Below, one piece after another: positions 22,932 to 25,811 of a stretch of 64,000 nt of DNA. A model generated the notes under the pieces. That model did not search any database. It was not told the origin of the DNA and saw only the letters and a program-made list of their open reading frames with translations. How positions within the stretch are numbered: the stretch's first letter is position 1; every line of letters begins with the position of its first letter. Where the stretch lies: NCBI RefSeq assembly GCF_058153355.1, contig NZ_CM177019.1. The stretch is one strand, 5' to 3'. The translations under genes were made by a program, and so were the position numbers.

Positions 22932-22949
22932 ATGTCAAAGAAAAGAACC

Positions 22950-22978
22950 TGATTCAATGTGTAACATTGAATCAGGCG
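22950..22978 (-). terminator. perfect hairpin between the sulfatase stop and the 426-aa gene
   Basis: cctgattcaatgt-gta-acattgaatcagg, a 13-bp perfect stem; possible terminator/attenuator after the sulfatase gene. Confidence 0.45.
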
Positions 22979-23024
22979 GGCATAGCCCTGAAAGGCATAC
23001 ATTACATTTATTATGGTTATCAGA

Positions 23025-24518
23025 TTAGCCCCAGGTTACCGCTTCCGGTTTATCACCTCTGGCTTTCATTAATGAATCATTATCAATATCGGCTTTATAC
23101 TTTAAGAACTTACCATACATTTGTTTTTCAATGTCTGGATTTTTACCTATCTGATTAATGGTCTCAAAACGATCGGTTTTGAGGTTGTATAAGTACTTTG
23201 GCTTATTGTTACGATCGATGATCATTTTCCAGTCACCATCACGTATCGCCCATTCGTCGGTTGGATCATCCTGGAATGGCATGTCAATTCCGAAGATTAA
23301 TGGCTTTTCACGTTTTAGCGCCTTGTTCTCAAGGACAGGAACCAACGATTCGCCATCAAAAGTGCGGTCCGTCGGTAATTTGAAGTTCATCATTTTCGCC
23401 AGCGTAGGCATCCAGTCCAGACCATAAACGGGAGTATCTGAAACCATTCCCTTTGGAAGATGCTTTCCGTATTTAATAATCGCCGGAACACGGATGCCGC
23501 CTTCCCAAAGATTATCCTTGCGACCACGTAATCCATCAGTTTCCCCTGCCAAATTCAGTTCATAAACTTTACGTGCTTCACGGGTTACTGGGCCGTTATC
23601 ACTGGTAAAAATAACGATGGTGTTATCTTCTTCACCCATCGCTTTGATTTTATCCAGTACTTTTCCAACCTGAGCATCCAGATAACTGATGTTGGCATAA
23701 TATTCTCCTGTACCACGCCAGGGTTTATCCGCCCAGTCGCCATAAAATAAATCAGGATGCTGCTTCTGATAGTCGCTCATATAATGTGAGTACATGTCGA
23801 GGTATTTTTTGGGCGAAGCCAGGGGACTGTGCACTTCGGTAAAAGCGACATAAAGGAAGAAAGGCTTACTATCCTTTTTGTTATCCAACCAGTTAACGAC
23901 TTCCGAACTGACATACTCACCACTCATTTTATCGGCACGAGGTGTGGGTTGCCCGTTACGCAACCAACCCGTCGGATACACCATACCAAAACGGGGACGC
24001 TCCTTCGCATTATCCAGAGTAGCGTCGGTAACAAAACCCGCCGTATTAACCAGTGAGTAATCAAAGCCCATATCTTTTGCCTGAGGCTGATCGGTACGAT
24101 CGCCGCCTGCATTCAGATGCAGCTTACCCATCATGGCCGTGTCATACCCTTGCGCTTTGAGTAGATTAGCAATCGTGAGTTCATTACGCCCTAATGCCAC
24201 ATCTTTTCCCGTTGGGATCCATGAACGTATGCCGGTACGAAATGGCATCCGCCCCGTTAATAACCCCGCTCGCGAAGGAGAACTTAAGGGAGCTGGTGCA
24301 TAGTAGTCAGTAAATTTGACCCCTTCCTGGGCAAGCCTGTCGATATTAGGTGTTTTAACGATCTGATGACCATATGTTGCTAAATCGCCATAACCTAAAT
24401 CATCCGCCATAATAATGACTAAATTAGGTTGTTTAGCCTCTGCGGCTAAGGCAGGACTAAAAGCATTCCCTGTGCAAACTGCAAGGCCGATCAAACTGGC
24501 CATTAACGTTTTCTGCAT
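23025..24518 (-). CDS. periplasmic Ser-type sulfatase (arylsulfatase family)
   Basis: 497 aa with signal peptide MQKTLMASLIGLAVCTGNAFSPALA; metal-binding MADDLGYGDL; formylglycine motif present as S-S-P-S-R-AGLLTGR (Ser in place of Cys). Confidence 0.8.
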   Translation of the reverse strand: MQKTLMASLIGLAVCTGNAFSPALAAEAKQPNLVIIMADDLGYGDLATYGHQIVKTPNIDRLAQEGVKFTDYYAPAPLSSPSRAGLLTGRMPFRTGIRSWIPTGKDVALGRNELTIANLLKAQGYDTAMMGKLHLNAGGDRTDQPQAKDMGFDYSLVNTAGFVTDATLDNAKERPRFGMVYPTGWLRNGQPTPRADKMSGEYVSSEVVNWLDNKKDSKPFFLYVAFTEVHSPLASPKKYLDMYSHYMSDYQKQHPDLFYGDWADKPWRGTGEYYANISYLDAQVGKVLDKIKAMGEEDNTIVIFTSDNGPVTREARKVYELNLAGETDGLRGRKDNLWEGGIRVPAIIKYGKHLPKGMVSDTPVYGLDWMPTLAKMMNFKLPTDRTFDGESLVPVLENKALKREKPLIFGIDMPFQDDPTDEWAIRDGDWKMIIDRNNKPKYLYNLKTDRFETINQIGKNPDIEKQMYGKFLKYKADIDNDSLMKARGDKPEAVTWG

Positions 24519-24538
24519 AATTATTCCCTGATAAAAAA

Positions 24539-25300
24539 TTAGAAATCATAACCAAGCATATAAATCATTTGATCGCCAAAGCCATCGTAGCCCAGCTTAT
24601 TATCGAAATAACGCCACGTCACACTGGCTTTCCAGCGAGGATAGAACTTCCAGGCAATAGTTAAACCGCCATTTAACCCGTTCCGGCCAAATTGCTGCTC
24701 CGTGTAAGCATCGTTCCTGTCCAGTTCTATTTCATTCCAGTTAGATAAAACAAATTTTTCGTCAAATAACATAAATGGCAATACTGCTGTCCAGCCAACA
24801 ACATAACCATTCCAACCATTCGTTTGACCATATTTAGCTGATACGTAGTCACCAGATTGATTATGTAATCCAATATACGGTTTAAAAAAGCCCCACTCGC
24901 CGTTCCAGCCGAGGTAACCGAATCCATAAAACATGTCCAGATCGTCACCCCATGAGTTATCCCATTGGCCATAAATTTTGCCAAAGAATGTCATATCAGA
25001 GTCAAAGAGTCTGACATGCGTCATTGCTGAAACCGTATGATTTCTCCCTGCTACAGCATGATTGAGTACATTACTTTCATAAAATGAGTAAAATTCTGCT
25101 TCTTTAAAATTTACCCCAAAATCCGCAGTCACTTTCCATACTTCACCACGGTGAGTGTTTACAAATCCACTATTCCAGTCTGCATAACCCGCATTTATTG
25201 AACCAAAGGTTCCTTTATATTCTAATGAAGAATATGCAGGAAAATGATAGATAGCTGTTATCAGGGTACACGCAATAAGAAGTCGTCTTTTGGCAGACAT
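24539..25300 (-). CDS. small outer-membrane beta-barrel channel, Tsx/OmpK-family-like
   Basis: 253 aa, signal peptide then a W/G/Y-rich sequence ending ...MIYMLGYDF (C-terminal aromatic typical of OM beta-barrels); 20 bp upstream of the sulfatase gene on the same strand (operon-like). Confidence 0.5.
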   Translation of the reverse strand: MSAKRRLLIACTLITAIYHFPAYSSLEYKGTFGSINAGYADWNSGFVNTHRGEVWKVTADFGVNFKEAEFYSFYESNVLNHAVAGRNHTVSAMTHVRLFDSDMTFFGKIYGQWDNSWGDDLDMFYGFGYLGWNGEWGFFKPYIGLHNQSGDYVSAKYGQTNGWNGYVVGWTAVLPFMLFDEKFVLSNWNEIELDRNDAYTEQQFGRNGLNGGLTIAWKFYPRWKASVTWRYFDNKLGYDGFGDQMIYMLGYDF

Positions 25301-25811
25301 ATAATATGTTCTCCATTCATTGTTTTTATGATTCCATAGGAATTAATACACCAGACAATTCATTTTTATTAAGAATGACCAGGACAGTATATTTAAAGAT
25401 GACTATCGAAGCGTGATGAAGATCGCAGATTACTTTTGCGAACGGGCGGAGAGATATCGTGTTTCAGAAAATGTGTCTGTTTTAAATATCACCCTTTGAT
25501 TTATAGGCATTTTTCATGATGAACTTAGCATTGACTGCTGAACGTATTTCTTTGTCTCTCTATAGTATTACACTAACCTTTAATAATTAATTTCCTTTAG
25601 CTATTCACTTTTGAAAGAGGAAAACACCTTTTTTTGTGAATCCCTGGATATATTTAAGTTAAATAAATTGATGTATTGAAATATTATTCCGTAAAAATGC
25701 GAGGCGTCTTCAGAAAAAGAATTGATAAAACAGAAGTGAATTAAAAGCGCTGTATAATAGCGGCGGGTGCTTGAGGCTATCTGTCTCAGGCATTAGCTGA
25801 ACGGCAGATAG

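Follow-up and report, generated by a model that had tools for sequence, protein, structure and literature searches.

Why does a gene for a Ser-type sulfatase lie beside an outer membrane channel gene, in a place where Escherichia coli K-12 has neither, with no gene nearby for the maturase that such an enzyme should need? We examined this question in a 64,000-nucleotide stretch of contig NZ_CM177019.1 (RefSeq assembly GCF_058153355.1), which as a whole is here called the window. The original prediction, made before any database search, described the two genes as an inserted, horizontally acquired, and possibly undescribed system. The answer that we consider probable is instead that the locus is the Escherichia version of an old enterobacterial cluster for sulfate ester utilization, in which the maturase was deleted, the formylglycine-precursor residue changed from Cys to Ser, and the sulfatase is still used and is matured in trans. 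Shown here directly are the genomic events at its core: Escherichia deleted the open reading frame (ORF) of the anaerobic sulfatase-maturating enzyme (anSME) and changed a TGT codon to AGT, and strong purifying selection has continued on the sulfatase, whose catalytic set is complete.

The locus belongs to the Escherichia dnaK-dnaJ-mokC/hokC ... nhaA-nhaR neighborhood. Three successive ORFs lie on its minus strand, encoding 253 aa (24539-25300), 497 aa (23025-24518), and, at its maximal length, 426 aa (21651-22931). As predicted, the first two are on the same strand and 20 nt apart, with the channel gene upstream. The features needed for the argument are as follows, with the evidence in parentheses.

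24539..25300, minus strand: OmpK/Tsx-family outer membrane beta-barrel gene, 253 aa (ORF list, PF03502).
23025..24518, minus strand: S1-family sulfatase gene, 497 aa (ORF list, PF00884).
24282..24284, minus strand: Ser79 codon AGT, the formylglycine-precursor position (codon comparison across loci).
22937..22977, minus strand: intrinsic-terminator-like hairpin, with a 12- to 14-bp stem and a T-run, directly after the sulfatase stop codon (scan, RNAalifold).
21651..22895, minus strand: third cluster gene, for a 414-aa cytoplasmic protein with two zinc ribbons and a helix-turn-helix (HTH), then an uncharacterized C-terminal domain (ORF, zinc-ribbon model matches, AlphaFold2 [AF2] model).
21640..25646, no strand: presence/absence unit in E. 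coli, missing from K-12 MG1655 (blastn break points, K-12 versus window).

Both protein families proposed for the pair were borne out by Pfam. The sulfatase matches the Sulfatase model PF00884 with an E value of 8.5e-59 (residues 31 to 378 on model positions 1 to 300 of 301) and begins with a Sec-type signal sequence (MQKTLMASLIGLAVCTGNAFSPALA/AE). Following ...YYAPAPL is the signature S79-S-P-S-R83-A-G-L-L-T-G-R90, which fits the pattern (C/S)-x-P-x-R and then x3-L-T-G-R; the S-x-P-x-R motif reported earlier is confirmed as S-S-P-S-R, with AGT as its first codon. Residues D39, D40, R83, K132, H134, H230, D307, N308, and K334, to which we assign metal-binding or catalytic roles by analogy with characterized sulfatases, are invariant in a 13-sequence ortholog alignment. 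PDB entry 3ED4, a “putative arylsulfatase from Escherichia coli” (New York SGX structural genomics, unpublished), is the E. coli ortholog of the window protein, being 96% identical over 492 residues and having the same S-S-P-S-R motif. This entry has served others as a molecular replacement model (PMC9063841). It is a deposited structure only: a literature search by locus tags, gene names, and 3ED4 returned no published substrate, maturation state, or genomic context for it and no functional study of the locus. The next closest solved homologs, human steryl-sulfatase and assorted carbohydrate sulfatases, have similar E values, and therefore no sulfatase subfamily is assigned.

Orthologous clusters, identified by a scan of one genome per species together with contig look-ups, are widespread among enterobacteria. 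Within the genus Escherichia, they occur in E. albertii, a cryptic Escherichia lineage, and E. coli, and elsewhere, they occur in Citrobacter youngae, C. braakii, Citrobacter sp. FP75, Salmonella enterica (including subsp. arizonae), Klebsiella oxytoca, Kluyvera intermedia, three Phytobacter species, a Kosakonia, Atlantibacter, and Franconibacter, with distant orthologs (52 to 57% identity) in Vibrio and Enterovibrio. The cluster lies between dnaJ and nhaA in Escherichia, Citrobacter, Salmonella, Kluyvera, Phytobacter, Kosakonia, Atlantibacter, and others and beside nhaA in Klebsiella; in the UBA3516 metagenome-assembled genome, it is likewise between dnaJ and nhaA or beside nhaA, and in Franconibacter, the cluster is present but neither flanking gene was found in the locus. 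The expected co-conservation of channel and sulfatase was confirmed in 13 loci of 8 genera, where the channel gene is 18 to 31 nt upstream on the same strand. Clusters of Phytobacter, Kosakonia, Citrobacter, S. enterica subsp. arizonae (hereafter, S. arizonae), Atlantibacter, and Franconibacter share the site, gene order, and hairpin of the window locus and have sulfatases that are 73 to 89% identical to that of the window. In contrast to the window, they have Cys at the formylglycine position and an anSME gene between the sulfatase and zinc-ribbon genes. Because the position between dnaJ and nhaA is the same across genera, the cluster is ancestral and K-12 represents a deletion; its history is one of vertical inheritance with repeated loss, not of recent insertion.

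The change at the catalytic position is confined to Escherichia. Codon 79 is AGT in all five Escherichia loci and TGT or TGC, giving Cys in a C-S-P-S-R motif, in 21 of 21 orthologous loci elsewhere. The original prediction had allowed that closer alignment might reveal a Cys-type motif, which is the case for every ortholog outside Escherichia and for none within it. The step from TGT to AGT is one first-position change, identical in all five loci. At population scale, the two-gene segment that we queried (22900-25850) is present at ≥80% in 1271 of 5426 complete E. coli genomes. Searches with 54-mers, built so that each 28-nt seed spans the diagnostic base, recovered the Ser version on three haplotype backgrounds in 920, 9, and 139 complete E. 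coli genomes (at least 1068 in total; about 200 of the 1271 module-bearing genomes fall outside the three haplotypes), and the Cys version (T) on the same backgrounds was recovered in none. Only three changes (C79S, G193P, and P493A) are fixed in Escherichia among the 278 columns that are invariant across 14 non-Escherichia Enterobacteriaceae.

The reported lack of a maturase also holds, and comparison with other genera indicates how it arose. A tblastn search of the whole 64-kb window with four anSMEs (AslB, YdeM, and two encoded in clusters of this type) gave a best E value of 1.3, and it found no maturase remnant; the gap between the sulfatase gene and the next one is just 93 to 129 nt. In Phytobacter and S. 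arizonae, the 1.3 kb between the sulfatase and zinc-ribbon genes is taken up by an ORF of 401 to 408 aa that has a CxxxCxxC motif. This cluster maturase scores 519.9 bits on TIGR03942, “anaerobic sulfatase maturase” (cutoff, 349), and cluster anSMEs are 46 to 48% identical to AslB and 42 to 45% identical to YdeM. By tblastn, an anSME is in the same position in 10 enterobacterial loci from nine species, one of them cut by a contig end, and in Vibrio and Enterovibrio, it is found upstream of the sulfatase gene. None of the five Escherichia loci has it, nor do the K. oxytoca, Kluyvera intermedia, P. massiliensis, and S. enterica loci. At the Escherichia junction, the anSME ORF is gone from between two landmarks that were kept, namely, the hairpin after the sulfatase and the ribosome-binding site and start context of the zinc-ribbon gene (TATTCGCAGGGAGTGAATATG). 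We compared the junctions of K. oxytoca (L006, 11492-11740), Kluyvera intermedia (L013, 2284-2600), P. massiliensis (L018, 11501-11660), and the window (22896-23024); because their sequences differ, at least four independent anSME deletions (in K. oxytoca, Kluyvera intermedia, P. massiliensis, and Escherichia) are indicated.

After loss of the dedicated maturase, the sulfatase remained under strong constraint, apart from some signs of relaxation that are described below. The 497-codon ORF is intact in all five Escherichia loci, and pairwise ratios of nonsynonymous to synonymous substitution rates (dN/dS) for the sulfatase within Escherichia are 0.02 to 0.06, with dS up to 0.89 (E. coli versus E. 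albertii). These ratios are indistinguishable from those of lineages with Cys and an anSME (0.017 to 0.052) and from those of nhaA; pairwise values with dN near 2 came from mis-registered tblastn fragments and were ignored. The combination of strong purifying selection with invariant catalytic residues argues against both decay and a wholesale change of chemistry.

Maturation could then depend on enzymes encoded elsewhere, as the original prediction had suggested. The core genes aslB and ydeM are present in 5424 and 5334, respectively, of the 5426 complete E. coli genomes, and the K-12 sulfatases encoded beside them, AslA (SSPTR) and YdeN (SGPSR), are Ser-type by motif. Since their neighbors are Ser-type and the two genes are nearly universal, maturation in trans by AslB or YdeM is likely, and it is the most economical explanation. 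The literature treats the products of aslB and ydeM as putative anSMEs, mentions a further unidentified formylglycine-forming system in E. coli, and still regards sulfatase maturation in this species as incompletely understood (PMC8379841). The aslA-aslB and ydeN-ydeM pairs share the Ser-type signature with the window locus but differ in that the anSME adjoins the sulfatase; moreover, AslA and YdeN share just 25 to 30% identity with the window sulfatase, and the window adds an outer membrane channel gene to the operon. According to the literature, Klebsiella atsBA is a further case of a Ser-type sulfatase encoded beside its anSME. A sulfatase that lacks a neighboring maturase and relies on an unlinked one is a known arrangement, as in Bacteroides thetaiotaomicron, where one anSME serves many sulfatases. 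In contrast to that arrangement, the orphan state is here demonstrably secondary, the dedicated maturase having been deleted and Cys replaced by Ser alongside.

Taken together, these comparisons suggest how the cluster may work. The ancestral order would have been OmpK/Tsx channel, periplasmic S1 sulfatase, terminator-like hairpin, anSME, and zinc-ribbon/HTH protein. A small sulfated organic compound would cross the outer membrane via the narrow channel and would lose its sulfate group in the periplasm. The channel and sulfatase genes would be cotranscribed, with the hairpin attenuating read-through into the downstream gene, and the zinc-ribbon/HTH protein would most likely be the transcription factor of the cluster. 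The unlinked core AslB or YdeM would turn Ser79 into formylglycine while the protein is still in the cytoplasm, ahead of Sec export; given cytoplasmic maturation by an anSME, activity would be expected mainly under anaerobic (gut) conditions.

Several observations weigh against this account or parts of it. Three other lineages without an anSME kept Cys, and Escherichia alone switched to Ser; therefore, the switch was not forced by maturase loss alone. The Ser-type AtsA of Klebsiella reportedly needs coexpressed AtsB in aerobically grown E. coli. The sequence record of 3ED4 shows Ser at position 79, consistent with the recombinant protein being unmodified there. E. coli 2013C-4282 (L001) has two substitutions, G89D and T95A, within the signature (LTGRMPFRT), and the channel gene of the E. 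albertii type strain looks frameshifted. About 77% of complete E. coli genomes do without the module, which is thus dispensable. Finally, the regulatory role is proposed from the domains present and from a model of medium confidence (pLDDT 64), and the evidence on the substrate consists entirely of neighbor genes in other genera. Residues 89 and 95 are invariant in every ortholog other than that of 2013C-4282.

The same events allow a bolder reading, which we regard as unlikely: the change from Cys to Ser was selected because the enzyme, its own maturase lost, depended on AslB or YdeM, which prefer Ser-type substrates in vivo, and the zinc-ribbon/HTH proteins are an undescribed family of transposase-derived regulators or maturation accessories for sulfatase/anSME clusters. 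If this were true, the locus would be a natural experiment in anSME-substrate matching.

An unlikely alternative, in our judgment, is that the Escherichia protein is no longer a formylglycine sulfatase and that Ser79 stays unmodified, the protein being either a different hydrolase with a Ser nucleophile, as in relatives of the alkaline phosphatase type, or a noncatalytic binding protein. This would fit the deletion of the cognate anSME and the Ser in the 3ED4 sequence, and a shift in function could be what the change at the nucleophile precursor marks, as it is one of just three that are fixed at sites invariant elsewhere. In human sulfatases, mutants with Ser in place of formylglycine become trapped as a dead-end sulfo-enzyme. 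However, the residues for formylglycine chemistry and sulfate binding are all invariant, the dN/dS values are indistinguishable from those of the lineages with Cys and an anSME, there is no burst of substitutions, and the segment PSRAGLLTGR downstream of Ser, needed for maturase recognition, is kept. For this genus, Ser is the normal state of a maturase substrate, given that the E. coli sulfatases encoded beside aslB and ydeM have it as well.

Acquisition of a two-gene island, brought by mobile elements into a site that is intergenic in K-12, was the reading of the original prediction and now appears quite improbable. The G+C content is 36 to 48% across the module compared with 49 to 57% in dnaJ and dnaK, the module is lacking from K-12 and most other complete E. 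coli genomes, an IS110-family element is close by in the window, and mosaic divergence of alleles within Escherichia points to recombinational exchange in the genus. Yet the cluster has the same position and order in at least 10 genera, including E. albertii and the cryptic Escherichia lineage within Escherichia, and just 12 of 7843 matching places are on plasmids. According to the blastn break points between K-12 and the window, the 85 bp after the zinc-ribbon gene are still present in K-12, which is what a deletion would leave. The absence from K-12 thus stands, but the absent unit (21640-25646) comprises all three ORFs and the upstream region of the channel gene, so that the left boundary of the proposed two-gene module, 22932, cuts one gene off. 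As for mobile elements, the sole true one near the module is a copy of ISSso6, which is not in the closest relative, and the supposed element next to the sulfatase is the conserved, nonmobile zinc-ribbon gene, which is single copy and syntenic, is under purifying selection (dN/dS about 0.1), and lacks a conserved DDE triad. We give equally little credence to the module being a remnant in slow decay, its sulfatase useless after the maturase deletion, since the intact ORF in all five Escherichia loci and dN/dS of 0.02 to 0.06 are incompatible with long-term neutrality and RefSeq annotates intact genes in the genomes listed, even though the module is absent from most E. coli genomes, the signature is substituted in 2013C-4282, the channel gene is disrupted in the E. 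albertii type strain, and S. enterica loci keep the sulfatase alone with fragments of its neighbors.

The description of the pair as an undescribed system was overstated, given that the locus is an ordinary sulfatase/anSME operon in other genera and that the 3ED4 structure had been deposited. What appears to be undescribed is the history, that is, loss of a dedicated maturase and a fixed Cys-to-Ser change in one genus with continued purifying selection. For annotation, the missing maturase is explained by a lineage-specific deletion together with unlinked core maturases, the IS1/IS1595-like neighbor is a conserved cluster gene, and the locus is ancestral, not an island. The Cys-type enzymes with a dedicated anSME (Citrobacter, Salmonella, and Phytobacter) and the Ser-type enzymes without one (Escherichia) form a comparative pair for the study of sulfatase maturation in E. 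coli. About one in four complete E. coli genomes, those of the type strain and of UTI89-like strains among them, have the module as an accessory trait, and we speculate that its substrate may matter in gut or host colonization.

The third gene was assigned a start at 22895 (414 aa) rather than at 22931, the start of the longest ORF, because the ribosome-binding site and start context are conserved there. Its product matches zinc-ribbon models only (NF050000, 32.8 bits; cutoff, 28). The IS1 transposase model NF033558 gives 26.8 bits against a cutoff of 100 and covers only residues 80 to 163, no Pfam transposase domain was found in the protein, and PHROGs returned a weak transposase zinc-ribbon match only. 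In a 25-sequence alignment of the family, no Asp is invariant and thus there is no DDE triad, and the C-terminal His and Cys residues are invariant. The gene is single copy and syntenic downstream of the sulfatase or anSME gene in 10 genera, with dN/dS of about 0.08 to 0.13. An IS1/IS1595 transposase was accordingly rejected for want of a DDE triad, a full-length model match, and more than a single syntenic copy; a substitute maturase was rejected because the protein co-occurs with an anSME in nine species.

The zinc-ribbon family comprises 61 sequence clusters, and all members named by organism come from Enterobacteriaceae and are called “cytoplasmic protein.” The AF2 model has medium confidence (mean predicted local distance difference test score [pLDDT], 64; predicted template modeling score [pTM], 0.67) and contains two zinc ribbons, a confident HTH (residues 108 to 153), and a poorly resolved C-terminal domain. 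A Foldseek search of the PDB with this model gave nothing significant, transposases included, and an AFDB50 fold search and a profile search gave distant, uncharacterized relatives of 400 to 600 aa in other Gammaproteobacteria. Based on domain content and the predicted fold, the zinc-ribbon/HTH protein is probably the dedicated DNA-binding regulator of the cluster. No homolog was found beside the Vibrio and Enterovibrio sulfatases. Among distant relatives, one (L090) adjoins a convergent anSME gene and another (L091) adjoins a gene for a UshA-like nucleotidase, and a more distant one (L092) adjoins the nupC/PNP nucleoside uptake genes.

The channel protein has a signal peptide-like N terminus and ends in ...MLGYDF. 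It matches Pfam Channel_Tsx PF03502 with an E value of 3.9e-13, and only residues 106 to 253 align, on model positions 88 to 244; by sequence, no match to solved structures was detected. The YfeN/OmpK/Tsx family is its closest known context: the E. coli ortholog is named “outer membrane protein OmpK” in RefSeq, and identity to K-12 YfeN is 30% over the whole length. The NCBIfam model PRK11528, titled just “hypothetical protein,” is the YfeN model. Because the channel scores 119.3 bits on this YfeN equivalog, below the cutoff of 282 (K-12 YfeN itself scores 456), it is a distinct paralog and not YfeN. The two also differ in context, since yfeN adjoins the xanthosine genes xapA and xapB (L095, yfeN at 13619-14383), whereas the window channel is tied to a sulfatase. 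YdiY had been considered as the K-12 relative, which was wrong, as YdiY is a DUF481 protein and the relative is YfeN. In the E. albertii type strain NBRC 107761 (L022, 9220-9977), the channel gene is split over two reading frames and ends 209 nt before the sulfatase; given the two frames and the early stop, the gene has probably become a pseudogene in this strain. The S. arizonae, C. braakii, and Citrobacter sp. FP75 loci have, as their channel gene, a copy with 55% identity that is encoded on the opposite strand. The S. enterica loci L003 to L005 keep the sulfatase, with neighboring genes only as fragments.

Conserved sequences on both sides of the channel-sulfatase pair may bear on its expression. 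Across 15 loci, RNAalifold predicts 12 pairs in the hairpin, 11 of them with compensatory double changes, and the hairpin is kept with or without an anSME gene downstream, lying between the sulfatase and anSME genes in other genera. It resembles an attenuating terminator, which would set the strongly expressed structural genes apart from whatever gene or genes follow. Upstream of the channel gene, an eight-species alignment added one feature:

25413..25473, minus strand: conserved upstream motifs of the channel gene (8-species alignment).

The first motif, ACATTTTCTGA(C/A)AC at approximately 25461-25473, is conserved across genera. The second is a palindrome, GTGATA-TCTC-TATCAC, in other genera and is degenerate in the window as CTGCGATCTTCATCAC, at approximately 25413-25429; the exact palindrome occurs once per locus, solely upstream of the channel gene, in five loci. 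A scan for sigma-70 promoters gave no excess over the shuffled expectation.

Neighbor genes in other genera offer a first indication of the substrate. The clusters of S. arizonae and of two Citrobacter species are flanked by arylsulfate sulfotransferase (ASST) genes (PF05935, 1.3e-99) and a UshA-like gene. Together with the narrow channel of the Tsx/OmpK type, these neighbors would favor small aryl or nucleoside-type sulfates over polysaccharides, which is only a lead. In detail, the S. arizonae and Citrobacter loci (L011, 5212-9419 and 14156-15898; L012; L020) contain two ASST paralogs, a UshA-like 5'-nucleotidase gene, and the divergent 55%-identical OmpK-like gene on the opposite strand. 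By tblastn, Franconibacter has a 47%-identical ASST match upstream and Kluyvera has a 38-aa match at a contig end, with their completeness uncertain. The Vibrio and Atlantibacter neighborhoods, searched for substrate clues, contain generic regulators and transporters only.

The closest relative of the window is E. coli 2013C-4282, with flanks that are 98.4 to 98.7% identical. Compared with E. coli DFK.1 (18505-27331 versus L002), dS is 0.013 for the channel gene, 0.56 for the sulfatase gene, 0.93 for the zinc-ribbon gene, 0.41 for nhaA, and 0.10 for dnaJ, and this mosaic within Escherichia indicates recombination break points inside the cluster. The ISSso6 copy (IS110 family; approximately 20037-21554) lies between nhaA and the zinc-ribbon gene and is not in 2013C-4282. 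Immediately left of it, about 208 bp are duplicated in tandem (19617-19828 and 19825-20036; copies 100% identical); this duplication, which covers the nhaA promoter region plus 55 nt from the start of nhaA, is likewise not in 2013C-4282. The IS110-type insertion here thus comes with a one-sided tandem duplication. An Rfam scan of 19000-27000 identified a single RNA, the sok antitoxin RNA of the hokC/mokC type I toxin-antitoxin locus (25765-25917; RF01794, 120.5 bits), just past the right end of the module.

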